From Amphiscolops sp. MND2022 (Eukaryota): a stretch of DNA of 64,000 bases. The notes beneath the pieces were generated by a model. The model saw only the letters and a program-made list of their open reading frames with translations, did no database searches and was not told the origin of the DNA. Positions 22,041 through 64,000 of this stretch are shown here, piece by piece (positions within the stretch are counted from its first letter, which is position 1; each line of letters begins with the position of its first letter). Position numbers and translations under genes: made by a program. The stretch spans positions 32,986,001-33,050,000 of the forward strand of contig OZ076409.1 in the NCBI GenBank assembly GCA_964187785.1. Reading direction: 5' to 3'.

Positions 22041-22042
22041 GG

Positions 22043-28600: not shown

Positions 28601-28715
28601 AATCAGAATTGTTCAAAATTCTCTTGTTTTGATGGTTCTTTCGAGCACATGTATTGAATTTTTTTTTTGATTTTTTCAAATTTGGTTTGAATAAAATTTG
28701 ATTAAAACTTTTCAG
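25605..28715. repeat. Tandem array of 3 x ~1026-bp units, each a B/C-family 3' LTR plus PPT-side stub plus AT-rich flank
   Basis: TGTAACGTCCAAATAGC recurs at 25712, 26739 and 27764. The LTR ends ...CCGGTACA (26415), followed by TCCTCTC(G/C)GGGCCGTAG homologous to 54351-54380. Confidence 0.9.
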
Positions 28716-29997: not shown

Positions 29998-30004
29998 ATC
30001 AAAA

Positions 30005-31194
30005 ATGACTGGCACACGCAGTAGAAATCAATCCACCTCGGACGAAAAATGTCCGCTGTGCAAAAGTAAGGTAGCTGAAAAAGAAAAGAACTCAATTCTT
30101 TGCAACGGTTGTTTTGAATGGTGGCACGGGACATGTGGAGGAATAGAAGTGAAAGATTTGGCAATTTTGGCGAAGTACTCGGCTGTGCACTGGTACTGTC
30201 CCAAATGTGAAAACGACACTTTGCAAAAACAAGGTATGACCATCATGAAGTCCTTAAAAACGTTAAATCAATGGTATAAAAATGAAACTAAAATTCGCAA
30301 ACAGGAAATTGATCTCTTGATGTCAATTAAAACTGATATCGAAATCATCAAGGAAAAACCCCCTCAAGAAACACCTATGCCGAGAAAGCTAAAATCGCCC
30401 GAAAACCTTCGCCCTCTACGAGACAACAAATACCTCGAAACAAAGAGAAAGACTTGAGTACCATATTGATTGTCAGTGGCAATCAAAAGTATCGAGATAG
30501 CATTGAAACTAAAAGGGCATTTTCAAAAATTTTTCCTATGAAAAAATTGATTGTAGCATTCACTACAGCTCGGGGAAACATTCATTTAGAATTCTTGAAC
30601 TCTCAAGAGGCTGACGAGGTGTTCTCCAACTGGAAAGCTGATTATCTTGGAACGAAAACCAGTATACGAAAAGCTAGCGCTAGAGGTGAGCAGAGAAACG
30701 CTGTCATAAAAGGTGTTCCGAAAGACATAGAAGAGATTCATATTACTGAACTTCTCCAGAAGAAGTATCCTGGGATCTATGTGAAAAGATTCGTAAAAGC
30801 GGATGGAACAATTCTGCAGACAGTGAAACTGACCTTCCAGTCAGAGCTTCAATACAACAATGCACTATATGAGGGACTCTTTTTGGATTCCATTTACTAT
30901 CAGCCATATGCATTTGTTCAGAGAGGCATAAGAATCATTCGATGTTACAACTGCCAAAATTTCGGTCACTTTAGCGGAAACTGCCACTCCAAAACAGCCT
31001 GTAAACACTGCAGTGAAGATCACATAATTGAAGACTGTCCGAATAAAGAATTAGAAAGCAAATGTATGAATTGCAAAGGGCCTCACGATGCGGATTCACT
31101 TGTGTGCCCAACTTACCTTAAACAAAAACAAGTGGTTTATGAGGCTCGGGGGCTAACTGATGAAAATCATGATGGATGGCATGATGGCTCCTGA
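30005..31194 (+). pseudogene. LINE ORF1: PHD finger, coiled coil, RRM-like region and three CCHC knuckles (frameshift near 30400)
   Basis: CPLC...CNGCFEWWHGTC...WYCPKC (PHD); CYNCQNFGHFSGNC, CKHCSEDHIIEDC and CMNCKGPHDADSLVC. Confidence 0.85.
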
Positions 31195-34137
31195 TAGGAG
31201 AACATCATTCTTACAGATCAACCTTTGCGGCTTGAGTAATCACAGTAAAATTGCAATTGATGCATATCTTGAAAAACATAAACCAGATGTGGTTTTCTCG
31301 AAAGAAACCAAACAACAAATTCCTGATAATGCCTTTACCAAATATACAACTCTCAGTAGTACCCCAAAGAAATCGACAGGCGGGGTTGCGTTGTTGTTTC
31401 GATGTGGTTTTCTCGAATGAAACCAAACAACAAATTCCTGATAATGCCTTTACCAAATATACAACTCTCAGTAGTACCCCAAAGAAATCGACAGGCGGGG
31501 TTGCCTAAAATTACTAACTACGACTGCGTATGTAAAACTTGATGACAAAGGTGAACTACTAGAACTCATAAAAAGACTTGAAGCATGTAAAATCTACGCA
31601 GATACAAATCACATGGAAGGTGTCCTTTTCTTTGGCGACTGCAACGCCAGACACTTATATTGGGGTGATCAGAAGTGCAATGCACTTGGAAATGAGTTAA
31701 TCAGCCTCGTACCAACTTATACTGTTTTGAACTATGGCCAACCTACTTTCCTCTCAATCAACGGCCAAATGCTCGCTTACAACTGATGAAGATTTGGAAC
31801 TGTTCACTGGAGCACCCTCCAGGGGCCACCTGCCTGTGCTAGTTTCTCTTGTCGAGTCGAAAAGTGGTTATTTCAAGGAGAAGCCGTGGATTGAGAAAGC
31901 AATGTGGGATGACTGGAGTTAACTATACCCAGTAAAGAGCTCAGGCAGCTGCGTCGGAACTTCCGATACAAGTCCAACCATGCAAATTTAGAAAAACTAG
32001 CAGAAGCGAAAGAATTATTCAAACGACTACTCAGTGAAAAGGCGTCTGCCTGGATGAAAGACTACTTGAAGGCACTGGGACACAAACGAGGCAATGAATT
32101 TTAGGTATCGTACTAGAAACTGTTCGCTGGAAGCAGTTCCCAAGTGGATCTCATCAAGAATAAACACGGAAAACTGCTGCTCTCAAAAAAAAGATATTGC
32201 TCAAGAATTCCAAGAGACCTTCTTCGAAGGAAAACATCTGGAAACTCTCAACTTCGACGAGTCAATGTCAAGGACAGTCTCAAGTTATCTGGACTCGTTT
32301 GATGATGTTTCCGAGCATGTTTCGGAAGTTTTTCATGAACCTTTCACAATGGAAGAACTAAACGAAGCAATGAAACAATCTTCTGATACAAACTCCTTCG
32401 ACCCTGACGGGTTCCACGTCAAATTGATCAAAAACTTGGGAGTTAATGCGAAAACTCTTCTCTTGGAGATTTTTAATACATGTTGGGAACATGCTGTATG
32501 GCCCTGGTCTTTATAACGAATTGTGTTTATCAGGAAGCCTAACAAAGACAGGTAGGACGACTGTTCCAGCTATCGACCGCTATCTATCTCTAGTCATTTT
32601 GGAAAGGTTTTTGAGCATATGCTGTGCAATAGATTAAATTATTTCACGGGAATCGAGAAGATTCTGGCGGACGAACAAGATGGTTTCAGAAGTAAAAGAA
32701 ACACAGTCAGATCTCTGTACAGGCTACATCTTAATCTGGAAAATTCTAAATTAATGAAAACACCGACCGCTCTACTCAACATTGACCTCGAAAAGGCCTT
32801 TGACAGCGTGTGGATAGATGGCCTACTTTACAAACTCAGACATTACAAAACAAACGGTAAAATGTTCCGCATTTTACGAACCTTTTTGAAGTACCGAGAA
32901 GCATTCATTGTGTTATCTGACTTCCGTTCATCTGTCTTCAAAATAGACATTGGTGTCCTTCAGGGCAGTGTCTTGTCACACTTTTGTTTGTATATTTTCT
33001 TGAACAATTTTCTGAGTGAGGAACCGTGCCACTACAAGTTCGCTGACGACAGTGCAATTTTAATTCAAGGCTGCAATGAAATTGATATCTCCCAAAAACT
33101 CGAACAGTCTAGCAGGGGGATAGAACAGTGGTGCCGCAAATGGAGAATGGGAGTGAATGGCTCCAAGACAGAATTGATAGTTTTCAATGTGGAAAGAAAC
33201 AACATAACTGCGCCGAGCCTGAACAATGAAGCGTGCGCTATCACAAAAACTACAAAATCTCTCAGTCTCCTGATTGATGATAACCTGTGTTACAAAGATC
33301 ACGCCGAAAAAATCTGTAACAAAGCTAAACGCAGCTGGGATAACGCTTCTAGAATTTTGAGATGCAAATGGAGCTTGTCAGTTCCAACGTTATTTTTCCT
33401 CTGCACTACTATCATTGTACCGCAGCTCTTATACGTATCAGTATTATGGTTTGAAAGAAATAGAAGCTCAGTCATGAGAGTCCAGAATCATATCAACAAA
33501 CCAATCTTTCGACATAGTTTTACTCCTACCATTAGCATCTGCGAAACGCTGCTAGGACCACCTCCTCTGGACATTTACAATGATGCCATAGAATCAAATT
33601 TGTCATCAAAGTCAAAAGAGCCAATGACTTGGTGAGTAATACCCACTCTCTTTTCATCTCCAACCGAAGTAAAGCTGAAGCAATAGAAAGTAAGTTAAGT
33701 AACTTCAAAAAGTTCCTTGATGACGATACTCGGACATAATACAACAAGCACGAAATAGATGAACTCACAGAACAAAGTTGGATAAAGAGATGGAAGAAAA
33801 CCCAAAATAAAGGCCTCTTGCAACATCTCCCTAACACGCAACCACAGCTAAACACCTGTTGTCCGTTAACTATTGGAGACCCTTATGTTGTCAATAAATC
33901 TGCGAATTAGTAATTGGGAATTCCTTTGCTTTAGCCGAATATGCCTGGAACATGTGGAAGTGTGAATCACCAATGTGCATATGTGGAAAGTCAGAAGACA
34001 ATCCCTATCACTATTTCTTCTGCTGTCCGCACTATAACGAGATACGCCCAGATGTACAGAGCCTAAATTTAATGGAAGCGACTGATTGTCAAAAACTCCG
34101 AGATTTCATAATTAATACAAATAAACTAAACTTATAG
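31178..34137 (+). pseudogene. LINE ORF2: AP endonuclease plus reverse transcriptase, disrupted
   Basis: FLQINLCGL and FGDCNARH (APE); YRPLS, QDGFR, DLEKAFDSV, GVLQGSVL and KFADD (RT); CICG...PYHYFFCC. There is a ~104-bp internal duplication at 31286-31389/31401-31504. Confidence 0.9.
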
Positions 34138-34174
34138 ACTATTGACCTATCATTAACATCTTCCCGCAAATAGG

Positions 34175-34374
34175 NNNNNNNNNNNNNNNNNNNNNNNNNN
34201 NNNNNNNNNNNNNNNNNNNNNNNNNNNNNNNNNNNNNNNNNNNNNNNNNNNNNNNNNNNNNNNNNNNNNNNNNNNNNNNNNNNNNNNNNNNNNNNNNNNN
34301 NNNNNNNNNNNNNNNNNNNNNNNNNNNNNNNNNNNNNNNNNNNNNNNNNNNNNNNNNNNNNNNNNNNNNNNNNN
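34175..34374. other. Assembly gap (200 N)
   Basis: Run of N. Confidence 1.
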
Positions 34375-36510
34375 TCCATACCGCACAAACCAATCTTTGT
34401 ATGCCTTATTTGCTTTGGCGTTGCCCTCGTCCACTGGATTTCTGCGCTCTCGTTGTCGACCTAATAAATACAGAAAAATTTCCAGAGCCAACTTGGGTTC
34501 GCTTGGGATATCTTTGCTCATTTGCAAGGTTCTAATAGTAGGCTGTTGTACTACCAAAGGCGTAGCTGTTTTCAGTTTCTGATACTGATGATGAATGACT
34601 TGATCTACTAGCTCTGGTTTTGTCCAGTAGGTGGTTTTTCTCAATATGGTGGCAGCATTGACACGGGGTCCCGCCCTCGCGCAGTACATCCTTGATGCGT
34701 GGCATGTGTGAGGATAATGCAGCCCACTGGACGCCTCTCCGCGTACTCTGCCGCCTAGTCGCTGGATCGCTGCTGTTAGAATTCACAGGATCGCAGTAAC
34801 ACCCCATTCAGGAAAATTGTCTACTGCACCCGTTTCTGGGTCGAGAGGAATATGCAACCACCAGACTGGATGATGTTCTAAGGGCATGGATAGAGCGCAC
34901 CGCGCTCGTGCTCGTATCACAGTCGAGTAATTATGTTCTACTTGCTTTCTGCCTTTAATGACTGTGTAGGCCATTGGAGGCCGCAAGTTAGCGAAGTTCC
35001 GAACTATGGACTGATACGTATGTGCTCGTCTTGAGTTGCCAGAACTTACTAATTGCACAATTGTGAAAATTGGGGTATTGGCAGCAACCTTCAAATGTTG
35101 TGTGGGGTATCTGGGAGCCATCACGGAACCAATTATGGGCAAAACTATTGGAGCAATCAGCGAGAGCAGGTCCTCTGTCTCCAGTAGCATGAGACTGGTC
35201 AACTGGGAGGGTAACAAGGAGCCTGGGAAATCCGTTGCTTCACGTGGTATCACTGTGGGATCATTAAAAGGATGCAATTTTCCCGAAACATTGACCCATG
35301 TAAAATAAATTCACATGAGCAAGGCTTCTATATTATTGTCTCACTGAATTTCCAATGGCATGTAGAAATTAGGCTCGTGAGTTTTTTCGTCCAGCGTAGA
35401 ATAGTCTCTTTTTCGTACCAGTGGTTGTCAAGCATATTCTCTTTCTCCGCTGCAGTTGGATCACTGACTTGGTGAACTACATTCTCATCCAAAGTTCCGT
35501 GAGCGGTTTGCATTCTAAAGTCAAATGCAGTAGCTTCATTACCTAGCATTTGGGAGTTGCCCTTGTTTCCTGTGTAGGCCTGCAAGGCCTTCGAGAGTTC
35601 TGCCAAGAATGCTGGATTAGATGCTTTGCGGGGACGCCACGAATTTGCGCTAATCCTGAGGTTTGGCGCAACTATGTGAAAGCATAGGTCGCTAGCAAGG
35701 TACAAGAACTGTTGCAGCGACCTGGGCAAGAATATTTGACAGGGTGGGGATACAAAAATTACTACCGCCGTTGCCCTCTTGTTCTTGACAGAACGTGCTA
35801 CGTTTTTCATAGCTTCGATATAATTTGTCAATTCATCTGTCATAAATTTTCAGTCAGTCTCGTGTGACCAGGCTCAAAATATCTCAATGTGCCACGCAGT
35901 GAGAGGTAGTCTATCGTATTGCAGAAGAGTAGGAATGTGGGGAAAGTAATGGCCTCGGCTACTGCAGGACCGAAAATCTTGCACGTCACTTCAGTCATGT
36001 CTTCCAGCGGAAAACAAGGCTAATCCATCTCACGCACGTCCATTTGAAAATCAAGGGGGATGGCGTTGTTAATGGTTGCATCCTCAGAGACCGTTTTTGT
36101 TCCATGAGAGGTCTAGTAGGCTCGCTATAGGTTGAACGTGATCTAGGATCAGCAATACTATGTGTTAGATTGTAACTGTGCCAGACTCCATCTTGGAAAC
36201 TTGCGGCACGTACGAGCGATCCAATACCACTGAACACTGTAAGAACCAAATCTTGGTAATCTGTCTGCGCTTGCAGTTGTGCTATGGAAATGGCAATGCC
36301 AGCTACTAAAGTAGGTGTAGCTCTATTCTGAAGGGTACTTTGCACAAGCGCCAATTGAACGACTCTGCCAGTTATTTCTCCAAGAGATGTTGTGGCAGAT
36401 GAGGTTCCATGCTCAGGTAGCTGCCGACGATTGTTATTCCGATTGGAAGTTGCGAAAATGCGTTGGCGGGACGAATTATCCATGTTCGATAGTAGCACCG
36501 ATGGTAGCAC
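34375..36510 (-). pseudogene. Element B large accessory ORF remnants (possible SGNH-like domain ~35330-36000, unknown conserved domain 34375-35330)
   Basis: FPTFLLFCNTIDYL...YIEAMKNV...VVIFVSPP. The segment 34783-35277 is clearly homologous (about half identical by eye) to ORF 54925-56289. Confidence 0.65.
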
Positions 36511-36690
36511 TTGTGGCGATTGATTATGACAGTTTTGCGCGAAGGGAGTGCAAAAGGACTTAACTGAAAAGTAGGCTGCATTGGAGTTTTAAAACTTTTT
36601 TGCACGGGCAGATTTGAAGAAAATGGAACTGACACTAGGGATACGATATTATGATAGGTGAACTCAGGTATGGATGAAAAGAGTAATTAA

Positions 36691-37461
36691 TCACATTATG
36701 GATAAAAAATGGAGTTCAAAAGAGAGGCCAATGGCCTCGCAAGGAGCTTGAATTGGTTGTATCTGGTACCTACCATGTGTCCTTGTTGCTGATGCTATTG
36801 ATACGTAGACGCGGTCGTGAAGCACTATTTCGATTTTTGATTCTTTGAAATGACCTCTAAGCATTGCGTACCAAGTTGGAAGTATGTTGAGTTGGGGATC
36901 GTAAATGAGAAAGTGGACTTGTGTAATGCACTTTTGATTGAGTTGGCGTATCAGATCGATTAAACATAGATGTAAAACCTCATGTAACAAGGGATTTTTG
37001 ATATAAGTTCTCGTGAAAAATAGGAAAACCTCGTTATTCCAAGGTGCAGATGATGATTTCGATAGTTGGACGGCTTTTCCTATGAATGGGCAGAGCTGAC
37101 AAATCTCCTCTTGTTCAAATTCTCGGAATACATAGCGCGTGATTGCCGAGTAACATACAAGGACCGCAGGACAACACATTACTAGCGTGGCAAGTGCCTG
37201 TATTATGTCTGTGTCGGCATAAGATATCCAAGGCAAGTAGTTTGGTCTAGTCTTGGGTTGTGTGATCAAACATTTACCTGTGGTGTAGCTGGAGTTGTCG
37301 GCTGATGGTGGTGCTAAGTGCTCAAACATTGCTGTGCGGTCCTGCCACACAGTACGTTGCAAGGGTCGATCGATCCTGTTGGTGTAGGACCAATCATGAA
37401 CTATGGAGAGTGCTTCAAGCACCGTTATTGGCTTCTCTAGTGTGTAGGTGTGGTGATCCAA
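36691..37461 (-). CDS. Element B accessory ORF with a TARG1/OARD1(Poa1p)-like macrodomain
   Basis: ISYADTDII..LVMCC...AITRYVFREF...IGKAV...VFLFFTR...LHLCL..L...ITQVHF...WYAML..HFKESKIEIVLH parallels the TARG1-class macrodomain motif and secondary-structure order. Confidence 0.55.
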   Translation of the reverse strand: MDHHTYTLEKPITVLEALSIVHDWSYTNRIDRPLQRTVWQDRTAMFEHLAPPSADNSSYTTGKCLITQPKTRPNYLPWISYADTDIIQALATLVMCCPAVLVCYSAITRYVFREFEQEEICQLCPFIGKAVQLSKSSSAPWNNEVFLFFTRTYIKNPLLHEVLHLCLIDLIRQLNQKCITQVHFLIYDPQLNILPTWYAMLRGHFKESKIEIVLHDRVYVSIASATRTHGRYQIQPIQAPCEAIGLSFELHFLSIM

Positions 37462-37854
37462 GATGCGTACTCTCGCTTGTCGGCAGAAAATACTCGCTAT
37501 TAATTGAAGCCAATGTTGGTGAAATCAAGAGTGGTGTTGAATTCTACCAAAGTGCGCAAGTTTTCCAGACCAATCAACAGCGTGGTCGGTAAGATAGGTG
37601 ATACTTCATCCAAGGACGAGACTAGTAGCCACCAACCGTTTGTAGGCTGGAATACGTCTCCTGGGATAAGTTTTTTTTCTTATAAAAAGATATTATTTCC
37701 ACAGTTGGTGTGCAGTGATGCAAGGAACCATTTCTATCTCCCCGTACTCTAGATCGATTTTTCCAAACACCATTTAGGTAGTGGAGGTAGGACAGCGGGT
37801 AATGTGAACTCGAGACCTTCCCGGTCTTTTCGCGTCCATTTTTTAAAACGGTAG

Positions 37855-40800
37855 CTAGGACAATTGACGGGTGAAGTGTTGTGCATCGTTTTCAGTGTGG
37901 TTTCTAGTAGAGGTACCACTCCTGGTTCTATGCTTGCGTACGTTTTCTTTACGGTTATCATCACAACATGATGTACTGATGGGGGAACAATTTTGTCGTC
38001 TCGGCCGAACTGCTAGGATTGCATGTTGCGGGAGGTAGTGTCCAGATGCTCGCGTAGTTACGAGTTCGCAGGCAAGAACTTTCACTCTCCGGGCCAATCG
38101 GTAGTCCAACGTTTCTCTCATGACTAGATTGACACATCTGCAGTCACGGGAACCGCAGGTTCCGCACCTATATCGTGGAGCTCTGTTTTTCCTCAGCTGA
38201 TAACGTTGTATTTGCGATAGGGTAGCCTGTTCAGCATCTAGCTGGGTTGATGATTGGTTCTCTGGAATGTTGCGTGAGGTCATGGCTCGTTCCAGAGTTC
38301 TTGACGGAGCTCTGGTGCTGCTTGAGTTCTCGGCCTCTGCTTGACCTGGCGACTGGTCCTCTCGAGGTTGCGGTGGTCTTACTTGAGGAAGTGCTACTTC
38401 CACTTTTGGGATCTGGTGGCCGGCGTCTTGGTTGACCTCTCCTGTGTGTTGCTCTGTCTGATGTCGGAGCTTGTATCGGGTTGGTATCTGGGACTTTTCT
38501 TCTTCGTTAAATTCTTCCTGGGGTTCGTTCTCTCTAGTGGGCTCTGGATATGGATCCAGCTTGGGAACTCAAGCGTGGGAACTAAGAGAGTCGGTTAGTG
38601 ATGGGTTTGACAGCAGTGGAGCGGATATTCATGTGGGTGATGGCATTAGGTTTCGGATGGGTTCTTTTGGCAGATTTTCTTGCTGATCTGAGAATAGTAG
38701 TTCGAGGTCGTCCAATTCAGGGAAGAATTTTTTGTTGGCCTGAATCTGGGTTTGGTTGTTCGGCTGACTACGAGTCGGAGGGGTCTCCGTAATGATTGAA
38801 TCTCGGTTGAGGTATCCCTTGTTCGAGAGCTGCCTGCATGCGTGTTTGGAAGATGCGCGGGAGAAACGGTCTGGTTGGTTCTAGTTCGAGCGATGTTTCC
38901 TGCAGCTGTTGCGGTAGGAGGGATTCTCGTGAAATGTCAGACGCTATTCCTTCATGACTCATTTTTACATATGGATAAGCTAAAAGGGATATTTTCTGAT
39001 CCGGCTCAAAGGGCCGATGAGCTGCCCAGTCCCAGGGCGCGGGGACATGCTCTTGTAATTACTCAAAATGGACCTTTTGGCCTGTGTCCAACACATAAAG
39101 GCGTCCGTCTTGTAGAACTTCGATGACTTGGTGGGTTCCGCGCCAAGCGCGAATTAGTTGCCGGGTGCCACATTTTGATATCATGTGGCAAAATACACAA
39201 TTTGCATCGCCTACGGCAAGCGCTTTCGCTTTTAGATGTTTATCAATTTCTTGCTTTTGCCTCAACTGTGCCCGATGTGTGTTTCTAGAACAACTCGTGA
39301 ATTTCTTGCTGTCTGACTAATAGATGCGCTACGAACTCAGGGTATATGAACGATAACGGAATCGACTTTTAAGCCCAATGTTGGAGCATATAGGGCAAAA
39401 ACCCTGTAGTTGCATTTCGGGATGTAGGCGCCCAAAACTCCATCTATATGCTCGTCCCAATCTTGAATCATGCGCTATGTATAGACTCGAAGCAAGGCGA
39501 GGAGTGTTCAATTTTGGGTCAGTAGGGGTGGATGTGATCTTGGTGAATTGCGTTGCCTTCATTAGTTCTTGTGCTATTTCTGCTGTAAAGTTGGTCGCGT
39601 TGTCAGATTGCATTCTAGCCGGAGTGCCATGCTTGACAAACAATTTGTTCAGGATGATCTTCGACGTTGTCTGTGCGTCATGTTCATTGTGGACACACAG
39701 AATTGCTCCAGCAAACTTCGTGAAGTGATCAATGATGACTAGTCGTCCTGTGTTTCCTGAGTCGGTCTTGCAAAGCATCAGGTGTTCGAACTATACTAAA
39801 TCGTTGCAGTTACTGCTGTTGATGTTTTGTAGAGGATAGCAGGGACTCCCGACTGGGTGCTTGGTTAGTTGGCACCTTAAACAATGCCTAATATGATTTA
39901 CCACATCACGTTTGATGCCTGGCCAGGTGTGTTTCTCCTGTATTCTCGCTAGCACTTTCCCTACGCCTTGATGTCCAGACTCGTCGTGCGCTCTATATAA
40001 GAATTCACGTTGGTATAGTTACGGCATGACGATCATGCATGGTCGCACGTGCAGCGCACGCTGTTACAGACGTAATTAAGGCATAGTATGTTATCTGGAT
40101 TCAAGAAAATAAATTCTTTCTTTTGATGATAATACCGTTTCGCGAATTCTTGTACATCCTCTGGAAAAACTGTGTCTTCTAAGGTTTTGCTGTTCATTGA
40201 CTTTTTAGTGCCAGAAGGTGAACATCTCGGCTCTGAGCTAGGTTTATGTCTTTCAGACCTCGCTTGGTCAGCTGGTGTTCGTGTACCTCAGTTCCTACCA
40301 TTCTGAGGACATCTGCTTAATCTTGGCATGCTTGGGGAAATCGGCGCAACATTGGAATGCGTTCCGCCGTGTCCAGGCATTGGAAGTATTAATGAGATTG
40401 CGATCGTTTAGTCTGTCGTCTTCGTTAAGCGTCGGAGTCATGTCCCCCATGTACGTTTGGATTCCATGGAATGGTATCGTTAGATTGATTGTCGGTTGGT
40501 GTTTGGTTTGATTTTTTCCGCAAAATGTACAGTACTGGAAATTGGACTCGAGCTGCTATTGCGAGGTCTGGATGATTTGGTTTTATTCGTCCAGGTTTAT
40601 TGAAGTCAAGTACCGTGGGAAGCTCTTCATTATCTTTTTGTGTCATGAAGCTGAAACCCTTGCTCACTTCTGGTAACGTCTCAATGTTTTTTCCCGGTGC
40701 ACAATGTTCTTTTCCTGTCGTTAAACCTTCTACTAAAGCCGTCTGCGTTTCTATACTGTGTTTGAGTCGATGGACTGTCTTGAAGTGGTAATGGTCGAAA

Positions 40801-42060
40801 ACGCGCAATCCAGTGTCCATACATGGCTTGGTTCGTAAAGTAGGTTTTTAACCACGAAAGGGCCTGATTATCCACGGAGAGCGTGAATTCCGGACATGCT
40901 AGGTATGAATGGAAACTCTCAGTGAAAAAAAATACCGCGTTTCGGTATGAAAAATTCCAGTTTCGGAGCACCATAATTTAATTACGTGCGTGTGAGTGAC
41001 TTTCTGCCATAAACGATGGGCCGCAGGTCGGTTTTTCTGTTATGCTCTTGCTCTCGGTGTAAGATTCCGCTATAGCTACTGCACTGGCATCTGTATCCAA
41101 AACGAAACTTCCTTCTTCGTTCGGCGCAGCCAAAGTAGTGGCCTCAGCTAGTGCTTGCGTCACTGAATCAAACACTTCTTGATGCTTCTGATTCCAGTAG
41201 ACATGCTGATTCTTTTTGAGTAGTTCCTGCATAAGTTGTACCATGGCAACGTGGAAGGAAATGAAGTGCTGGCAGAAATTGGCAAACCCCAAAATGCTCT
41301 GTAGCTCCTCCTTTTTTCTTGGGAGGCAGCCACTGTTGGATCTTGCCCACTGCTTCTGGATCTGGCTTGATACCTTCAGCTGAAACTTTTTGTCCCAGGT
41401 ATTTGATCTCAGTGCGTGAAGTCGCATTTTTCGGCCCGCATCTTGAAACCTGCCGCCCTGAGTCATTGGAACACTTCTGTTATCCTTACTATACGAACTT
41501 CAATTGTTTCGGTAGCGATGACGATGTCGTCAATGTAGGCCATGACGACGCTCCCGTGTCGCTCTTTGACCTTTTGTAAAGCTCTTGTGATGGATCGCTG
41601 GAATGTTGCAGATGCATTGCATCGCCCAGAGGGCATTCGTCGCCATTCAAATAAACCTAACTCGCAGGCAAATAAAGTTCTCCTTCGATCGCACTCTCTC
41701 GAATGGGTTTCGCCAAAATGTCCATGCTAAGTCATTGCTCGAGAAGATTCTCACATTGCCAATCCTCGAAAAGCTTCCATCTATCCTGGCATTGTAAACG
41801 TATTCTTCACGGTCACATCGTTTAACGACCGGAAGGCACAGCAAAAGCGATGTTCGCCGGATTTTTTTCTCCATGACCATTCCACCGGCCCATGGCCACT
41901 AAGAGGGTTGGGTCAGATCTAGGATTAGTAAGTCATGTACTTTTTGGTTTGCTTTACCTACCTTTTCGGGAGACATGCGTCTTGCCCCTACTTTGAGAGG
42001 TAGTCTCTGGGTCTAGTTCGATGCGGCGCTTTGCATTTTTGCATCCCCCTATGTCATCCC
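37855..42060 (-). pseudogene. pol: Element B pol (RT, RNase H, integrase, long C-terminal tail), many lesions
   Basis: DLAWTFW, AYIDDIV (41521-41540), VLDTDASAVAI, DNQALSWL, HDESGHQG...CLRC, IIDHFTKF, MQSDNATNF, WRGTHQVIE and RYQLRK. Confidence 0.9.
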
Positions 42061-42091
42061 TATGTTTCTTATATAAGTCCTCGTACTCACT

Positions 42092-43385
42092 TTAAACGCT
42101 TGCTAGTTGGTCCCTTGCCTCTTTCCCCCAGATAGAAAAACGGAAGAGAGGTTTGGCACAAGAATTGCTCTTAGCAACTGAGGATCTGTTCTCGCGCGTG
42201 TTTCCGCTCCGTTCTGTTCTCGCTCCGTTCTCTAGAAACTCAATTGTTGTCCTAGCTTTATCGAGAAGGGTTGCTTTGACATGTGACATTTCTAGGTGCC
42301 ACTTCATCAACATCATCCAGCCATCGGCATTTCCGTCTCGGGTTCCTCTATACTTCGTTGGCTTGTTCTTTGTCTCTTTGGCCGCTAGTAGCGGTTCTAG
42401 ACCATTAGACATGGACTTTAAAATTGCTTCTGCTATTGCTTGTCGTTGCATGGTTCTAGGTGTACCTGGAATGTTGTCTTTGGTTTCTACCCTGTCTACT
42501 GTATCGTCCTGGCTCAGGGCAAAGTTCCTTTCGCATTGACTTTCCGCTGTGTGCTAGAGGCCACTGGCCGCAAAGGGTTTTCCTCGAATGACAATTTTGG
42601 AGGGTTGGTGTTTGCACTAGCTGATAATGCTGTGTGGTAGTCTAATTTTTGTGTGATCGGATCGCTCGACGCTGAGTAATAGTCTCCTGTCGTTGATGCA
42701 CTGCGTGCAACTGGGTCAAAAAAGGAGAAGTCATTGGGTCGGTTCTCGTTTTGCACGATTTAACATGCATTACTCTTGCCATCTTGTTCGCCTTGGTAGG
42801 CTCCCTTTTGTAAGTTGCAGGCGGTATCAGCTTGGGTCGCTTGGCCTGTTCTCCACTGGGCTGACCTATTTTCCTGTATGTGGTTTGCACTGGGGGAGGT
42901 ACTGCGCTGGTAAAGGGTATGTTCATCGAATTCTGTGCTACCGGTATTGGTGAAGCCGGACTTGTTCTCTTAAGCGAGCCGCGATTGCACCTGTGTAAGC
43001 TTGTCCAGGCTTCGTCTGAAACCCTCTCTTATTGTATTAATTATTTACTATTAAATGTGATGGTCAAGTCCGTGGCCGTCGCGCTACCAATTCTAGAACC
43101 CAGGGTGTGGTCCAACCGTTCGGTATTTGCTAGGCGGATACTAAGGACTGCCACCGTCGTCGGTGATCGAAACGTGAACCGTAGTAGAAAGTCTTCCACT
43201 GGGGTTTTCAGCTTTTTTGCCGGCCCACCTGAAGGAATCCGCGCAAAAACGAGTTTTGTCTTCACTGCTAGTTGACGCGTGGGAAATTGATGGGTCCCTT
43301 TGCGTTGTCGCTTTTGGGAGCGCCTCCTCAGGGATTGCGCTCGCACTAGTTTGCAGTATCCACTCATTTGTTGTAATTTGTTCAT
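42092..43385 (-). pseudogene. gag: Element B gag remnant (gag C-terminus and protease deleted at ~42220)
   Basis: KPTKYRGTRDGNADGWMMLMK is homologous to ORFs 58491-59009 and 46591-47202. Confidence 0.75.
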
Positions 43386-52541: not shown

Positions 52542-52617
52542 GCTTTCTTCAAAATGACTTCGGCATAAAATCAAGCTTATAAGCTTGATTTTTTGCCGAA
52601 GTCAATTTGGAGAAAGC
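52542..52617. repeat. 76-bp loopless palindrome
   Basis: 38-nt arms with 3 mismatches, centre ...AAGCTTA|TAAGCTT... Confidence 0.9.
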
Positions 52618-53403: not shown

Positions 53404-53547
53404 CAGCTGAAATGTATTGTTAACTTACTTTCCCAATTCTTTGACATAGATTGATATCTTTCCTCTAGATAACTATAGTTATCTAGAGGAAAGATATCAA
53501 TCTATGTCAAAGAATTTGGGATGTATATTAACAATACATTTCAGCTG
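53404..53547. repeat. ~144-bp loopless palindrome
   Basis: Perfect 41-nt arms at 53435-53475/53476-53516, with imperfect extension to the CAGCTG ends. Confidence 0.95.
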
Positions 53548-53738
53548 GGGTTACTCTAGGTTCAACATTAGGTCCTTTCGTTCCTTTGATTTACATGAAT
53601 GATCTCCTCAAAAGTGTTCAAATCAACGGAACAAACGGCGTTGTTGAACAAAAATATCAGAAGCAAAAACACATGTAAGTGTTTGGGACTATATATAAAT
53701 AGTAAAATGATATTCAGAGAAGGTATTGTACATATTGT

Positions 53739-54350
53739 TATAACGACCGGCTAGCGACGCACATCTAGGAAGAGGGACAATGCCTAGGTTGCTTAAACAG
53801 GAGACCGTTGTCTTACTACATACCTAGACACTAGTTTTTAATCCCAAAATGGTCTCCTGTAACAACGTTCCCTAATATTTCCAATGCGTTCCTACGACTT
53901 CCTACATACTTCCGAGGTCCAAAAAGGTGTTTAACTGAAATACATTATATTGAGTGAATAAGGACTAAAATGGAGACCTACTAGGTCTAACATTATCCAA
54001 ATACTCAGAAAATAGCAATAAACACGGGGATAAGCCCCAATTACTTTACAGTTTATCGTCGTCCGTCGATTTTCTGCCTCTGGGATCATTCTTCATCATC
54101 GGGCACTTTTCCGGAGAGATGGCACAACACTCCGATCTGCTCGTTCGTTCTTTTCTTCTGATCGCTTTCAATTTTCCCTCGCATTCTTCTTGTTTTTATA
54201 TTTTTCCACGTGCTCTCTTCTTTGCTCTGTCTTCGCGTGGCTTCCTTTTTTATTCATGTACTCGTACCTGCCATTTTGATTGTTCCATTTTGATATCGCA
54301 CATTTTGAATTTTTCATCGAAATTTTGTCATGCCGGTGGCAGACGTTACT
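53739..54350 (-). repeat. Element C 3' LTR
   Basis: Direct repeat of 63199-63817. Confidence 0.9.
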
Positions 54351-54924: not shown

Positions 54925-56940
54925 TCAGGGTTCGATGTGAGCCGCTGGCTCCAGGTTTGTGGAGTGCTCCGCCACGAAGGGAGGGTATCGGCTAGAGTCA
55001 TCGATTGTTAGCAAGTTGTTCAATTCCGACTCTATGTCAGCCGCGTCCATTTGAAACATTACCATGTCAGGTTCATCTTGAGCTGGAGTGACTGCACCAG
55101 ATAAGGTAAAATTGTCGTCGGTCATGGCTTCAACAGGGGGAACCGCAGTGATCGAAGATTTTTCTTGATCAATTTCCATTCGCGCTTCAATTCTATTTGG
55201 AGGTGGCATTTCGGGCGGCAACTGTTGCGAACTGCCAGGGGCAGCTATACTTATTTGGTTGTTTCCACTGGTTATGCATCCCAGTGGGAGTTCGGGCAGA
55301 TTGTCGGCTAATTCTTGGCGGCCATACTGTATGAATAGCTTCTTGAAGATCTGGATGCCTCGTGCGTGTTCTTCACCAACTGATTGTCCTCGTTCGTTCA
55401 GTCTGCTATGCAGACTCAGGAATATCTCCAGCGCAGCGCGCGGATTGCTGGGGACTTCGGTGCTAACTGGCAGAAATCTTTTGCTTGGCTCTCGGGCTAC
55501 AGAGGGTATCGTGGCTTTCATGTGCAGATATTGTTGGTGGACAGCTGAATCAACTAACTCTGGTTTTGACCAGCATGTCATTGCGTCCAGGATGCGTGCG
55601 GTGTGTACGCGTGCGTTGGTTCGGTCACAATATATTCGCGAGGTGTCGTAAACATAGGGATAGCGCAACCCAGTGTGTGCTTCGCCTCGGTTCCTGCCTT
55701 CTAATCTCTGGATTTTTGTTGCCAAGACTCTCAGGACCACTTCCGTGTTCCAGTCTGCGAAAGAGTCTGCAGCGCCCGTTTCTTGGTTCAGGGGGATATG
55801 TAACCATGCGACCGGAAGAAACTCCATAGGCATTGAGAGAGCACATCGCGCACGTCCTCGGATAATCGATGTGAAATTGTTTTCCACCTGTTTCTTTTCT
55901 TTGATGATCGTATATGCAATGGGTGGTCGCAGTGATGTGAAACTCCTGACTGCTGTCTGATAGGTTGGGCCCCAGTGGGATCCGTCTGATGTCACAAAGT
56001 GCAAAATGGATAGGGTGGGGGCAAGTGCTGCCAATCGTAGGGTTTGCGTAGGATATCGCAACGCCATAACTGCTCCGAAGATTGGCCAGACTATGGGGGC
56101 GATTAAGGGCATTAGATCTTCCGTCTCTACTAGCATGAAGGTGGCGATCTGGGAAGGGAAGAGTAAACCTGGTAGTTGGTTGGGCTTTCTGTTGACTGCA
56201 GGGTTTTCATCCAGTGGATGCATGATCCCCGCTCCGTTTACCCACGTAGAATAAATCGATGCGAGGAGGGCTTCAGTTTTAAGTTCCAATTGTTACTTTA
56301 ATTGCAAGGGACCTGCAGGGTCCAGTGCGGGTAGAATTGCATTTATCCAGTTCTTTTGATTCTGGGAATACACCCAGATGCTGGAGAGACATAACCCTCC
56401 TTGTCGAATATCAGTTTTGCAGCAGGCCGGTAGGTCCTTTGTACACTGTGTGTAGACCAACTGCCATTGTGGATGCCAAGATTTCACTCATTGTTGCTTC
56501 TTGCATTGCTTCTACATACAAGGGTGTCTGCTGGTCATCTAATTTGTATTGTGCTTGCACGAAGTTAGGAAACCAGAATGAGAAAATGTTACATAAAAGC
56601 ACTGGAAACGGGATTTCTAGTCGCACTGCGACTTGATTTAGTGTTTCGCGCAAGGATTGGTGCCACGTCTGATACGTCTGTCGGGGCTCAGCTTTGTTCT
56701 GTTCGGCTAGGTTTTGCGCCATCACTACCAATAACGTCAAAGTGGGCGATGCCATTCCAGGTTGCGCGTCCAAAGCTACTGTAGCTGTTGGGAATACGGT
56801 TGTGTTGGTTCTCTCTGTTTTAATCGATTCTGTCACTTTAAATAGAGCTAGTACCATGAATTATCCACTAGGTGTTCACGATCTCTTTCGTTAGGATCAA
56901 TTACTTGACGGATACCCTGCTCGTTCAAGGATCGATTTAA
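54925..56940 (-). CDS. Element C accessory protein of unknown function (454-aa open C-terminal part, upstream part disrupted)
   Basis: ORFs 54925-56289, 56293-56487 and 56411-56857 read as one coding region homologous to element B 34375-35520. Confidence 0.7.
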
Positions 56941-59900
56941 TCCCAATTCGCAGGCGAATGCAGTTTTTCGTCTGTCGCATTTTTTAGGTGGTATTTGCCA
57001 GAAGGCCCACGCTAAGTCAATACTTGTGAAGGTTTTTGCATAAAGGTTGTTTTAAACATAAAGGTTGTCGGCTGTGCTTTTTCGAGGACAGTCTCACCAT
57101 GAAGTATCAAGTTTTCATTGGGTGTCCGGTTTCTCACGGCTAAGAACACTGTGCCGTCTTCTCCTACCGAAATTAGGGTGTTTTTTGAAACAAATGGACA
57201 TCAATTGTGCACACCGCTGGGGTGTATCATTACGTTGCGGTGAAGGTATTCGTTCGGATTTTGGGTTATGATTTGGGCCCTGACTGATGTGCGTTCAAAT
57301 GGACCTAGTACAAATTCGGTGGAAATTACTAAGGATGGTTCATGGTCACTAACCTCATGGACTGGTTTGAATTGGCGAGGAGTCTTGGGGTCGCGTATGG
57401 TGACCCTCATTGCGGTTAGGTCCACGAGGACGTTGTAGGTGCCCAGGAAAATGCGGCCTTGCAGGACGTCTTCAGCTCCCAAATGGTCTGCGATGACTAT
57501 GAAATTTGTCTTCAGCGTATGACCACCTAGTTGGAAGTTTACATTCTCGGCTATGCCAATGGTGTTTATGGTCTTGCCGTTGGCTGCGTACAGCTGGATT
57601 TCATATGGTAGAAGTCTTTTGGTATGCGGAAGATGAAAGGATAGAGACTCCAGAACATGTGTATATCATGCCATACAAAAGAATGGGCTCTTGGAGGGTG
57701 CTGCCAAAGGCAACTACCAGAGATGCTCTTTCGTCTATCCTAGCTTCCCCCTGAGTGTCTTGCACGCGAATATTATAGCATCGAAATTCTTGGCGGCCTA
57801 AGTACAATCCCTGTAGGGCGTGTCCTTCTAGGTCTACTATTGCGTCGAATCTCATGTCAACGCCATCTATGTTGATAGCAACAGGAACCGGAGAAAATGT
57901 TTTTACTTTTTGGATAGGTGCTAGTTTAGTTTCATCTTCCCTAGCGAAGTGTGACAATGGTCGAGCGGCAATTGTGTATTTGGTATTCCTACACAACTCT
58001 TCTTTCAATTGAGCTAGCGTCAGTTCAGGGCGCGACTTTTGTTCGGCCGAAGGGAGCAGATGTATAGAAATGAGGGTTTCGTTGCACTTCGGTGCTGGCT
58101 CTTCTAACGTGGTGAGTACCTGTTTTTCGCCGCAGTTGACGATAATGGGGCGTGAGGGGCCTCGGGCCTCCGCGACCGAAATTACTCGGACTTGATCGTC
58201 CTGTGTGACACCGTCGAACTGGTTGGGCTGATGGGTATACCATGCCACTCTAATTTGTTTTTCTTGTCTCGGGTGTTCTGGAGTCATACACTCGAATGCT
58301 GAATGTTCGGTGCAGCCACAATTCACGCAAAAGGCGACGGTTTCCTGGATTGGTAGTGATGCTGGGTAGATCTCGTTATTCAACCCGTGTGGCTGTGATG
58401 GACAAGTCCATCTTCCGGTTGGGTTCGTATGACAAGAGTTTACTTGTTGTTGTACTGGCTTTCGTGCGCGATCTTTCAGTGGACAATCTATTACGAAGTG
58501 TGATGGATCGCCACTATTGAAACATGCTCTTTGAGGTTGTTGTCGGTAGGGTGCCGGCTGTTGAGGCTTTGGCTACGCAAGCCTTCAAGGGCGTCTAGGT
58601 ACTGCATGTAGTCTTCTTCATTGTTTTGGTTTCGGGTTCTAAATTGTTGTTGGATGTGGATCTTACTTGACCCAGTTCCAAATCGACGTGCCAATAATGC
58701 GAAGACTTTTTCGTCTGTGTCCCTTTCCGCCTCAGATTTGTTTGTGATATAATCTCCTGCCTCGTGCTCGAGGCATTCAATTATTGTCCAGCCTTTGTCA
58801 ATATGAGTTGCCCTGGCATGTGCTTTTTCATAATGGGGCTTCATTAACTTCATCCATCTATCAGTATTGCTATCTTTCGTTCCTCCTCGAAATTTCGTGG
58901 GTTTGTTTTTTGATTCTTTTGTCGCTAGCACTTGCCAGCGCTTGTCGTTGACTCGTCCTCGGAGTATCGGGGGTTGCTTTCGAATCTTCTGAAGTTTCTC
59001 CCATTTCACTTTGATCTTGTTCCAATACTCGTTTGGTTGTAAGTTTGCGCTGCGTGCTAGTGACCACCGGCCGGGGGACTAGGTCTACGTATGTTTGCCT
59101 GGGTTGATTGGTACTTGTGTTGGTTCGCGCAGTGTAATAGTTTGATTCTCTGGTAGTCATTTCGCTCGCAGGCGAATAATAGTCTCCCGTTGTCGATGCA
59201 CCATGGGCGTAAGGATCGAATGAGACGCTAGTCAATGTGTCTGTACCAGCGTCACGTGGTTCGGTTTGGATGACCCTTGCCATTTTGTTGGTTTTTTGGG
59301 GGTCCCTTTTATATGTTGCGGGCGGTATTAGTTTTAAGGGTTTGTCTTGCTCGATGTTGGGTGGCGCCACTTTCCGATAGGTGGCTTGGGTTGGTAGTTG
59401 GGCTCCGCTGGTAGAAGGTAAATCGCTCGGGTGGGGTACCATAGGCGACACTGGCGCTGCCCTTGCTTGCACAGCGGCTGTTTGAGACGCTAAGGCTCTC
59501 TTTCCCAACGTTAGATCTTTCATTGTAGTCATTAGGTCTATCATGCGTGTTTCCCTGCGCTGCATGAGATCAGACATTAGCTTCATTCGTTCGTCGGCTT
59601 GACGATCTCTTTCTTTCATCACGGCTGACATTTCAGCCATGCGAGTATCGGATAAATTTTCCCGCTGTTTGATTAGGTCGTTCAGGGAGGCCATAAACGC
59701 TTCGAGTCTTCCTCGGTTCTGACGTCCTTCTGCTTGTATTTCTAGGAGGCCTTTTCTCATTTCGTCCATGTCTCTCATGATCACATCGGCGCGCATTACG
59801 TGTTTGCCGTTTTCTCGTGCTAATCGTGAATGTACTTGGGAGAGTTGGGCGAGACTTTTTTGGAAATCTTCCCTGGCCGCCTGCGATTCCTTTCGGATCT

Positions 59901-60586
59901 TCGTGATGGTCGAACCTGGGGCTGTTTCTGCACTGGCTCTCGAGTTAGGCGTATGGTTTGATCGTTCAATATTTTCTGGGTAGATGTTCAGATTTCTTGA
60001 TGGAGGCGTTCTGAAGACATACCGCAGTGGGTTATCTTCAATTTGGGTTGATTGATTTTCGTTTGGTTTGTTCGATCCCTTGGATGTGTTTCCTGGTTGC
60101 GTGTATCCAATCAGAAAAGGATTTCGGTCTGCGCAGTTGGTCAGCGTGTGGGAACCCGATGGGTTTCTGTGGATTGATGGTGTGCGGGGAGCCGCAACGG
60201 AGTTGTGACATTACTGTCTTGCGATGCTGCTTCTTCGGTGGTATCTATTCCGCACAATGGTCTGTTGTTTGAATTCGGCCATTCCCTTAAACTGTAGTCA
60301 GTGACCTTCGAGGAGGCTATGTATTATTTTGCGTGGCGGTTTCAACACCATCCACTGGATCGAAACTATCGGGGGAAGCTGGCGACGAACCGGGTTGTTC
60401 GGCAGCAGCTGTTGTTTCTGCACTTTGTTTCGAATTGGGGATGTAGTCGGACATGATCTCTGAAAACATATCTGCAATGGTGGATTCAAGGAGATCTTCG
60501 GTGAAAGTATCCCATCTGGTCATGGTTTCTATTTCGTTGCCGAATGGATTTGTGGCATGGAAAGTTCCGAAATCATTCTCATCCAT
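56941..60586 (-). pseudogene. gag: Element C gag-protease plus a short RT stub
   Basis: Coiled-coil gag (58870-59796), capsid-like 58491-59009, knuckle CVNCGCTEHSAFEC, degenerate protease GMIYTCSGVSIL...IFLG, and RT stub FTSIDLAWAFWQIP...KTAFACELGL at 56941-57030. Confidence 0.85.
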
Positions 60587-63164
60587 TTCATTAATTTAGT
60601 TGTGTGCGAATTGATTGTAATTGGAGTTCTTGCTTTTGTTTGTGGTGGGGTTACTTACTCTACCCTCCCCCCCCGCTGAAATGGAAGCTGGTGGGTATGG
60701 TGGGGAGTTCATCGCTTTTGGAGTCACTTATTTTCCAGAGATGACTAAGCCTGAGTGATGATAATTCACTTTGGCCGATTTAGTTCTTCAGGATGGTGGT
60801 CAACTAAGGGAATGGTAGTGTTTTTACTAGGTTAATTAAATTAATGCTATGCTACATGCAAAGATTACCAAAAAGTTTTAATTGCGTCTTCCGCAAAGTA
60901 AAGTGGGTTTATTCTGAACAAAAATTTTGAAGTTTTTTTTGTGTGTCTAGGATGATGGTTTTTGGGTTATTATGCAGCGATTCTTTACAGGGACAATCGT
61001 GAGTAGAGATTGATTTTTGACGGGAGTTTTGAGTGGCTATTTAAATTTGGTAGTGATTATCGAGACGCTGTCAGCGCAGTGCGCTTGTTTCACTAGTGGT
61101 TTTCATTATGCTTTTCTAACTAATGATTTCGAGCGCAGTGGGTTAAATGGAAATGGAGGTGGGTTTTGGGAGTTAGTATGGAGGGGGGTACTGAGGTTGG
61201 AGGTATGGTTCGTACCGTGGTGGTAGTACTATGCTTTTAAGCATTCACCGTTCAAACGTGTTAAATTATTGGTTTTCTACTTTTGTATCTCACGGAACAT
61301 GTAACGGGGGGTTCTTGATATTGGAAACGCTTGGAAGGTAGTACGACCAGTTCAATGGGATGCGTTGGGGATGTTTCTTGCGCGAATGGGGTAATTGCGG
61401 TTTTCGTAGGCTTGTTTTGGGGTGTAAAATGCCGCGATTTCTTGTTCGAGATTCGCTAAATCGAATATTTCATCGAATTGCACGTCTGGAAAACTATGCT
61501 TTGCTACAAAACTATGTTGTACCCGAGGTACCACTTTTATGGGTCAAAATTCACAAAAATGTCCATTTCTCAGCTTTGGATTGCCACTGGCTGCTCAAAT
61601 TGCACAAATCATCGGGATCTAATGCCGTGTGTACGAAAATGGAAGAATTTTTGTGTTGGGATACCTGCAAGGTATTGCACTATGCTCAACTAAAATTTGA
61701 TTTTTTCTACAATTTTGTACACTTTTTGGGCAAATTTGCGGCTAAGTTTTCTATGTCACTAGTATTGCTACCGCAATGAAAATTACACCACTAGCGTAAC
61801 GTGTTGTGGTCTACACGAAAGTGCAATCCGTTTTGGGCTGCTCCTACCAGAAGAGATTTCGACCTGCTCTGGGAGCACTATACCAAAGTCCCGATATTGT
61901 CACTAAAATAGCACGTTTTTGGCTATTTCTTGGCAACCACTGGTTGGAATCAATCGCGGTTTTCTGCGTTAGCAATGTTATGCTTTGTATTAACAGAAAA
62001 CATGCGGGCGAAACCTGGTAGGTTCCAAATAAGGTCTTCAAAAATTTTTATTTAAGTTGCGCTTTTTACACTCTCAGGACAGTACAAAAATCGTTTGTTT
62101 TCGCCAAGAATTCGGTACTTCTCGGTTTTCTAATGTTCCGAATGGTTTTGTCAGCAGTGGATAGAAGTATAACAAGTTTATTCAGGGGCTTGGGTTTGTT
62201 CCAATAATTAGTTTAGTTTCAATAACACTCAGGTCTTTGGTGTCCCTCTGCTCAGGCCTGTATGTAACAAAAGAAAGGGATTGATAAAGTTTTAATTTAT
62301 ATTGGGGAAAGCAAAATAACCGTCGTGGCACTAGTGTTACTTGTCGCCAAGCTCGATAACAAAATTTTTGGGCCTCTTCAATGGCTTGGGAGTTGTCGCC
62401 CAAGGCTTTGCCCCTGTCAAATTGTGTCAAAATGGCCGAATTTGACAATTTTTGAAAAGGTTTTGCAAAATTTTTCGTTTTTTTCGAAAAACTGGCCCAG
62501 CAACATTTTTTGTTCCTGACCCGGTGGGTCTATTGGAATGTTTTTCTAGTATTCCCACTGGCCGTACTTTGTTTAACAACATTTTGGTCTTAAAAATTAA
62601 AAATTTCGGTATTCGAGCCAAAAATAGCTTTATTTTCTAGGTTTTCGAGCTCAAATTTTTTAACAGCTAGTTCAAACACCCTCTGGGTTTTTGTCTCAGT
62701 TAGTTATTGTGGAAATAGGCCTGGAAATACTCTTTTTGGGTCGTTAAAAGCGATAGGAATGAAATAACCCAGCTGTCTTCGTAGATTCGGCAGTTGCAGG
62801 GGAGGTGGAGGTCACAGCGTGAAGTGTCTGACGCCTTGTACTCAGGTGGTTGGGGCGTTCACAAATTGTCCTCTCGGTCCCTGTACAATGCCAATTAGCT
62901 GAGAATAATTTGAAACAGGTTCCGGATAGGCCGGAATTGCTTTTTTATTAGGTACAAGTAAGGTTAAAGGCGGTACACCGTTAGAAACTGTTAATTTCTC
63001 GTGGTAGACCTCAGAAACATACAGGAAACGCCGGAACAACAATAGTACAAAGCCCAGAGGGCTAGAAAAAGATTATAAAAACAATCTAGGACCCTCCCTC
63101 AAGCTTTTCCTAGATCAGGACCGGAAAGCAGAAGTTGCTCCTACTTGTACGCAAACTGAAAAAT

Positions 63165-63198: not shown

Positions 63199-63817
63199 TG
63201 TAACGACCGGCTAGCGACGCACATCTAGGAAGACGGACAAAGCCTAGGATGCTCAAACAGGAGACCGTTGTCTTACTACATACCTAGACACTAGTTTTTG
63301 ATCCCAAAATGGTCTCCTGTAAAAACGTTCCCTAATATTTCCAATGCGTTCCAACAACTTCCTACATACTTCCGAGGTCCAAAAAGGTGTTTAACTAAAA
63401 TACATTATATTGAGTGAATAAGGACTAAAATGGAGACCTACTAGGTCTAACATTATCCAAATACTCAGAAAATAGCAATAAACACGGGGATAAGAACCAA
63501 TTCTTTTACAGTTCATCGTCGTCCGTCGAATTTCTGCCTCTGACATCATTCTTCATCATCGGGCACTTTTTCGGAGAGATGGCACAACACTCCGATCTGC
63601 TCGTTCTTTTCTTCTGATCTCTTTCAATTTTCCCTCGCATTCTTCTTTTTTTTTGGTATTTTTCCACGTGCTCTCTTCTTTGCTCTGTCATCGCGTGGCT
63701 TCCTTTTTCGTTCATGTACTCGTACCTGCCAGGTCGGCCCTTTTGATTGTTCCTTATTCATATCGCACATTTCGAATTTTTCATCGAAATTTTGTCATGC
63801 CGGTGGCAGACGTTACA
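63199..63817 (-). repeat. Element C 5' LTR
   Basis: TGTAACG...CGTTACA inverted termini. Confidence 0.92.
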
Positions 63818-64000
63818 TGTCAAGAATGAGCAATATTTGTGGGTTGATATTTAAAATTGGACATATGAATTCGACTCACTGTCTTCTTTTGTTATATAAT
63901 TTTCATGCTAAATCGATCATACTGTAAGGACTCCTGTTATGTGGACGATTAACCTATCTCGGAAAGTCTGTATAGTTAACAATTGTATTTTCCACAATCT

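Follow-up and report, generated by a model that had tools for sequence, protein, structure and literature searches.

The locus and its two element copies

The window analysed here is a 64,000-nucleotide stretch of the genome of Amphiscolops sp. MND2022, in which two diverged LTR retrotransposon copies, elements B and C, lie on the minus strand. Element C spans positions 63816–53741 and its LTRs are 93% identical. It starts with a 5′ LTR (63201–63816), preceded by a flank that ends in ACA and followed by the PBS-like motif TGGCGACC, continues with remnants of gag, zinc knuckle and protease (57051–60703; 3.65 kb interrupted by five frame changes and three stops) and a short reverse transcriptase (RT) fragment with the deletion junction at which RT is joined to the middle of a second gene, ORF2 (56933–57039), and ends with a 3′ LTR (53741–54349) that is preceded by a purine tract and followed by a flank beginning with ACA, i.e., a 3-bp duplication. 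ORF2 carries two frameshifts and one stop within 2 kb, all in a broken upstream part for the end of a predicted SGNH domain and a helical domain (56293–56961), and continues in an open frame at 54925–56292 (455 aa between stops, 432 aa from the first Met) that encodes a conserved domain and an acidic disordered tail. Two near-perfect palindromes (52542–52617, 76 nt; 53404–53547, 144 nt) lie just outside the element.

Among the 35 ORFs of ≥150 aa in the window, the open frame ranks first in length, as a preliminary description of the locus had stated, the runner-up (446 aa) being a gag remnant that is also part of element C. The frame is not a stand-alone unit. Ty3/Gypsy-type retrotransposons of ~19 kb encode a conserved second protein of ~1,400 aa, of which the frame represents the C-terminal third, and it corresponds to approximately residues 880–1367 of a 1,382-aa intact ORF2 protein (68%). 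The adjoining stretch 56293–56961 belongs to the same gene.

Element B, read in the same direction, retains the 5′ part of ORF2. A decayed pol gene for RT, RNase H, integrase and a long tail with macrodomain-like repeats (36784–42228) is followed by a splice-acceptor-like site (pyrimidine tract and CAG, 36556–36571) ~80 nt before the ORF2 ATG, the start codon with a small N-terminal domain (36037–36483), a frameshifted region to which the SGNH fold was assigned from the model of an intact relative (35409–36043) and the C-terminal domain with stops (34375–35385), which ends at an assembly gap (N, 34175–34374). The acidic tail (29110–29418, E 2e-5) is separated from it by the gap and by an inserted non-LTR element. 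ATG and acceptor are kept in a copy that has two internal deletions, frameshifts and stops. The inserted element (29420–34170, plus strand) encodes a PHD finger, a CCHC knuckle and an RT and adjoins the gap. Elsewhere in the window, 25626–28713 consists of three tandem copies of ~1,026 bp (97–98% identical), each with an LTR of the ORF2-element family, and 17596–22244 is a 2.35-kb tandem duplication (98%) of the protease region of a different Gypsy element.

A colinear protein common to elements C and B had been described, and the alignment agrees: the frame of element C aligns without gaps to 35328–34375 of element B, with 163 of 318 residues identical (~51%, E 4e-105) and two stops in B, and both motif pairs cited earlier, including RGRARCALSMP versus RARARCALSMP, are present in it. 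Identity at codon positions 1, 2 and 3 is 63, 74 and 36%, with pN 0.30 and a saturated pS of 0.79. Conservation at the protein level is therefore real, with divergence concentrated at third positions; the statement that the DNA is much more diverged holds for these positions, but overall DNA identity (58%) is not below protein identity (52%).

Full-length ORF2 and the ~19-kb elements

The 1.07-Gb genome was surveyed with the ORF of element C as query, which gave 2,900 candidates, and all of the 150 that were scored matched, 28 of them within frames that stay open for exactly 1,403 codons. Queries from further subfamilies recovered frames of 1,432–1,451 codons, so that the proposed genome-wide collection of copies yielded intact full-length ORF2 in several subfamilies. 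Ten regions surrounding such matches were read for element structure. The least damaged elements, from several subfamilies, measure ~19 kb and have LTRs of ~710 bp that are 95–100% identical within pairs. According to Pfam searches on intact copies, their gag-pol is a frame of ~3,300 codons with knuckles, protease, RT, RNase H plus integrase, and ORF2 follows downstream at a spacing of ~340 nt. From its ATG, ORF2 encodes 1,364–1,450 aa across intact copies (~4.1 kb), arranged as a small N-terminal domain, a disordered linker rich in P, S, T and Q, a predicted SGNH/GDSL fold and a helical region without a fold match; in one natural copy (P0088) the C-terminal half is duplicated in tandem and in frame.

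An acceptor-like site (pyrimidine tract and AG) lies ~80–110 nt 5′ of the ORF2 ATG in all seven correctly placed rows of an eight-row DNA alignment, which represent five subfamilies; the eighth row (L048) was misplaced inside the ORF and was left out of the count. As judged from this recurrent site, a subgenomic RNA produced by splicing is the likely template for the protein.

Several other features of these elements were noted. A leader of ~3 kb separates the 5′ LTR from the first gag-pol Met (L041:1058–4036), portions of which are conserved between subfamilies (67–78%), and the PBS-like motif begins 16 nt past the LTR end. The pol tail after the integrase contains two conserved units of ~150 aa (L042:2610–3677; window 36790–37254), which we take to resemble TARG1-type macrodomains. 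An ESM Atlas cluster for the tail has PF01661 Macro on 14% of its members (score 0.89), and Pfam, PHROGs and PDB sequences gave no match for a macrodomain; this identity is a lead only.

Selection on ORF2 and decay of the window copies

With our own Nei–Gojobori-type script, dN/dS between intact copies was 0.07, 0.10, 0.17, 0.27 and 0.29 in five unsaturated pairs, the more distant intact pairs being near or at saturation, and 0.09–0.13 between element C and subfamily F2. Selection on ORF2 is thus purifying and not near neutrality, and the earlier description stands in so far as it saw in the env position an accessory ORF that is conserved by selection on the protein. In the ORF2 tree, element C groups with subfamily F2 (99/93), element B forms a separate branch and five remote homologs are placed on long branches. 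ORF2 is a genuine accessory gene, of old age and under strong selection.

The element C frame had also been said to survive in an element that lost RT and integrase. It is indeed open, but the first ~660 codons of ORF2 were lost as well, and retention by selection is unsupported. A deletion fuses the start of RT to approximately codon 660 of ORF2. The lost part comprises most of RT, then RNase H and integrase, the tail of pol, the acceptor and ATG of ORF2 and the larger portion of the SGNH domain. The deletion junction is spanned by no other of 40 scored candidates, i.e., the deletion is unique among the scored copies, and dN/dS of element C is 0.54–0.56 to its nearest relative versus 0.06–0.34 to more distant ones. 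Taken together with the frameshifts and stops, this makes element C a decaying remnant, and because start, acceptor and most of the SGNH domain are gone, the deletion is unshared and dN/dS is ~0.55, survival of the frame is no evidence of selection; we reject selective retention of ORF2 in this element. The two ORF2 copies of the window are dead remnants.

The relaxed constraint on element C relative to its nearest relative is what would be expected if ORF2 were a captured host gene or a neutral passenger, a reading that we hold to be very improbable. Against it stand values of 0.07–0.17 between lineages, intact frames in several subfamilies and the result that searches of Pfam, NCBIfam, PHROGs and PDB sequences matched neither the flagged ORF nor full ORF2. 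For the family this reading is largely refuted; it holds only for the two copies in the window, from the time they inserted.

Target-site duplication and classification

Element ends were read in L031–L046, L130–L149 and L180–L187 with L121–L128. Among the 22 copies with both ends read, a count that leaves out three further pairs with an end outside the stretch or unread, the target-site duplication is 3 bp in 19 and 4 bp in two, and one has none; element C has ACA on both flanks (window 53738–53740 and 63817–63819). The LTR termini are TGTAAC..GTTACA, i.e., TG..CA, and a PBS and a purine tract are present. The domain order gag-PR-RT-RH-IN, established with Pfam on intact copies, is that of Ty3/Gypsy elements (Metaviridae), and among solved structures RT-RNase H is closest to Ty3 RT (E 4e-74), followed by a caulimovirus-type polyprotein (1e-47). 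The duplication departs from the 4–6 bp of Ty3/Gypsy elements, as 3 bp predominates.

According to the accessible text of Kojima (PMC12440569), a 3-bp duplication is peculiar to Troyka elements, with 4–6 bp elsewhere, and Troyka elements have CG..CG ends, a CX2CX8-10HX4C knuckle, no GPF/Y motif, LTRs of 100–400 bp, an internal part below 7.7 kb and no env. The ORF2 elements share with Troyka, as portrayed there, the 3-bp duplication with rare 4-bp cases and the single gag-pol frame. They differ in having TG..CA ends, two CX2CX4HX4C knuckles, a WRGPH (GPH) motif after the integrase, LTRs of ~710 bp, an internal part of ~17.6 kb and the large ORF2. We reject Troyka membership because termini, knuckle and GP motif differ; the size features fail as well. 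Judged by abstracts, none of the papers listed in a literature search for further 3-bp cases deals with the subject. The 3-bp duplication together with TG..CA ends implies that Troyka elements are not alone in this trait, a point that matters for classification and for the question of how an integrase sets the stagger.

A predicted SGNH fold upstream of the flagged domain

For one natural ORF2 copy, a core of 862 aa was folded with AF2 from 134 sequences (mean pLDDT 70). Residues ~60–260 form an alpha/beta domain with pLDDT mostly >85 and residues ~366–538 a confident helical domain; the flagged region, which starts near core residue 518, is mostly of low confidence, with pLDDT <50 over much of it. 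In a VIA comparison of the alpha/beta domain with 48,161 chains, platelet-activating factor (PAF) acetylhydrolase 1bwp ranked first (Z 11.4, rmsd 3.5, 185 aligned), and the rows after it are SGNH/GDSL-type hydrolases or proteins that carry such a domain. High-probability Foldseek rows (PDB, BFVD) are likewise mostly SGNH/GDSL proteins, none at E ≤ 0.001. ORF2 is thus predicted to carry an SGNH/GDSL alpha/beta fold. The proposed check with AlphaFold and Foldseek gave this model-based match upstream of the flagged domain and no credible one for the domain itself, so that the label "unknown" continues to apply to the C-terminal part and not to the full protein.

The catalytic residues are only partly in place. 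The block-I Ser is kept in 25 of 26 sequences; block I also keeps the Asp before it and has Val, Met or Ile where Gly would be expected. The block-III Asn is kept in 34 of 38, followed by an Asp-His motif (Asp 29/38, His 28/36). Just before the last helix of the SGNH domain, where DxxH is expected, Arg is found in 31 of 35 sequences and His in two; ORF2 has Arg-Pro where active esterases have His-Pro, in a column that was assigned to the catalytic His from motif and secondary structure. A profile comparison with active esterases of the same genome lacked significance (probability 0.5%), covered blocks I–II alone and placed the Ser one residue out of the register that we read from the motif; in this alignment the block-II Gly column is Cys or Leu. 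The residue pattern suggests that the SGNH domain is probably non-catalytic. Canonical SGNH esterases (GDS, GxND, DxxH) do occur in other repeats of the genome (L155–L162, L166; L163–L164; L165; L167–L178), in two of which (L161 and L166) the esterase is in frame downstream of an integrase.

Two alternatives start from this domain. ORF2 could be an active hydrolase or acyltransferase of non-canonical type that uses the kept Ser and the Asp-His after block III, with the C-terminal domain as a substrate-binding lid. Retention of these residues (25/26, 29/38 and 28/36) across homologs of about 25–35% identity would fit, but the canonical block-V His and probably the block-II Gly are absent and the His of the Asp-His motif is replaced by Asp or Tyr in some remote homologs; we consider such activity decidedly improbable. 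Alternatively, ORF2 could be a scaffold similar to Oskar, in which a dead SGNH domain would bind RNA and condensates would form through the disordered linker and tail, so that element RNA is brought to germ-line granules or shielded from silencing. The small N-terminal domain, the long P/S/T/Q-rich linker and the Arg at the His position of the SGNH fold recall Oskar, whose SGNH-like domain binds RNA and sits behind a disordered linker in the part of the literature available to us (PMC12005264). This reading, which does not account for the C-terminal 500 aa or for the hydrophobic segment conserved there, is in our view rather unlikely; that no Oskar chain is among the best 50 VIA rows weighs slightly against it.

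The flagged C-terminal domain

Folded alone (500 aa, 90 sequences), the C-terminal region reached a mean pLDDT of 63; no Foldseek match fell under E 0.8 and the best VIA match (Z 5.6) covered the last three helices only, which does not establish a new fold. Two apparent sequence-level leads were discarded: a match to a designed PPR repeat (E 1e-4) is the sum of four weak repeats, and an ESM Atlas assignment to Fungal_trans (0.92, 133 shared features) was taken as chance. In the best-conserved stretch, GF(L/F)xP is followed by an acidic patch, then by a hydrophobic 19-mer that contains PIFG and finally by RYP. The proline-kinked 19-mer (56059–56115, minus strand, between acidic patch and RYP) has a mean Kyte-Doolittle hydropathy of 1.6–2.2 in all nine proteins examined, five of which are remote homologs. 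No internal membrane feature had been remarked in the preliminary description, even though this conserved segment sits inside one of the motifs it quoted.

The view that ORF2 is not a classical Env is well founded, since no Env features were found by hydropathy and motif scans: all four full-length proteins lack a hydrophobic N-terminus of signal-peptide type and a C-terminal transmembrane anchor, R-x-K/R-R occurs in one of the four, i.e., there is no conserved furin site, and Cys residues are few. Errantivirus Env, which is encoded after pol, has a signal peptide, a furin site and a C-terminal anchor according to the consulted sections of PMC5408684, and MDG1-group sORF2 is a short transmembrane protein (10.1101/2025.03.14.642691, as available in part). 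ORF2 might nevertheless replace an envelope in a novel manner, namely as a protein of the cytosol that uses its hydrophobic segment to make particles bud, to penetrate membranes or to pass particles from cell to cell. Its env position, an acceptor-like site as in spliced env messages, its retention in all subfamilies sampled and the proline kink of the segment are compatible with such a role, and in Drosophila a small membrane protein is known to bring about transfer without Env, according to the accessible part of the latter source. We judge the idea improbable in view of the absent Env features, a size more than ten times that expected of a short sORF2-type protein and the Foldseek and VIA rows listed, among which no fusogen appears for a flagged domain that is modelled at low confidence.

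Relatives in other datasets

Word-based protein searches returned three sets (82, 11 and 3 proteins), each drawn wholly from ENA. When 1.84 billion representatives were searched with a profile, 451 matches reached E ≤ 0.001. From the best 150 of these, 144 were compared and 12 are <35% identical to Amphiscolops proteins. Three long remote homologs (P0382, P0393 and P0398; 1,140–1,541 aa) are 23–32% identical over the core and keep the domain order, and the hydrophobic segment and the Ser/Asp-His pattern recur in homologs of about 25–35% identity. A scan of metagenome contigs gave 575 pattern matches, none of which was confirmed. One remote homolog (P0335, MEO1519123.1) is on an 816-bp contig filed under a Bacteroidota MAG, which likely reflects host contamination.

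Proposed function and comparison with known systems

The reading that we favour, at a probability of roughly 0.45, is that ORF2 is a cytosolic membrane-binding adaptor. A spliced subgenomic RNA would yield the protein, the pocket of the probably non-catalytic SGNH domain may hold a lipid or acyl group, the conserved hydrophobic segment of the flagged domain, if exposed and not buried in a protein core, would insert into a membrane, and ORF2 would thereby place element RNA or particles at the membrane for assembly, transport or germ-line passage. We base this adaptor on the analogy with the ZfL2-1 esterase, whose liposome binding persists with a mutated active site in the accessible account (PMC3905857). 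A bolder version would combine an undescribed giant Ty3/Gypsy-type lineage that has a 3-bp-stagger integrase independent of Troyka with an ORF2 acting as envelope substitute, in which a lipid-gripping pseudo-esterase and a membrane-inserting domain of new fold move particles between cells or into the germ line; we regard this combination as a long shot. No description of the ORF2-element family was found among the matches listed in literature searches on SGNH domains in Gypsy/LTR elements, extra GDSL ORFs and retrotransposon macrodomains, which left most subscription journals and Repbase uncovered.

As far as the partial sources go, ORF2 resembles several known proteins in part. ZfL2-1 ORF1p is also a retroelement-borne SGNH protein (structure 4c1b, a weak Foldseek match of probability 0.35) and binds liposomes independently of catalysis, but it comes from a non-LTR element, is encoded upstream of pol, is catalytically active and small and has no C-terminal domain of the flagged type; its membrane face is basic, whereas the net charge of the flagged domain is not strongly so, which counts against the adaptor reading, as does the low confidence of the model for that domain. 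The OSK domain of Oskar is similar in that an SGNH-like fold behind a disordered linker is reused for binding; Oskar is an insect host germ-plasm protein to which no sequence or specific structural link is shown. Errantivirus Env and MDG1-group sORF2 are extra ORFs that serve transmission, Env from a position after pol, but neither feature pattern is found in ORF2.

The capture of ORFs after pol is a known phenomenon according to the review text available (PMC6431247), and the closest parallel comes from the Vesta LTR elements of bdelloid rotifers, described in the consulted sections of PMC5408684 as carrying a GDSL ORF3 of ~1.3 kb after pol with intact S-G-N-H and neutral within-genome variation, for which the authors proposed lipase-type substitutes for Env. 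Like Vesta ORF3, ORF2 follows pol as an ORF of its own within an LTR element of Gypsy-like type, with an SGNH fold (predicted in ORF2) and no Env features; unlike it, ORF2 is ~4.1 kb long, has Arg at the likely His position, is extended by an N-terminal domain and by 500 aa on the C-terminal side, and evolves under purifying selection. It is thus an esterase-bearing extra ORF with an added large domain that has no sequence or fold match in the searches made here, and the lineage that carries it is unusual in its target-site length. The role of large non-Env genes in the env position is an open question for which the rotifer examples, as far as described, are small and neutrally varying, and the ORF2 family adds a multi-domain case that is old and under strong selection. 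As it has distant homologs and many copies that are both young and intact, binding and localisation are directly testable in it.
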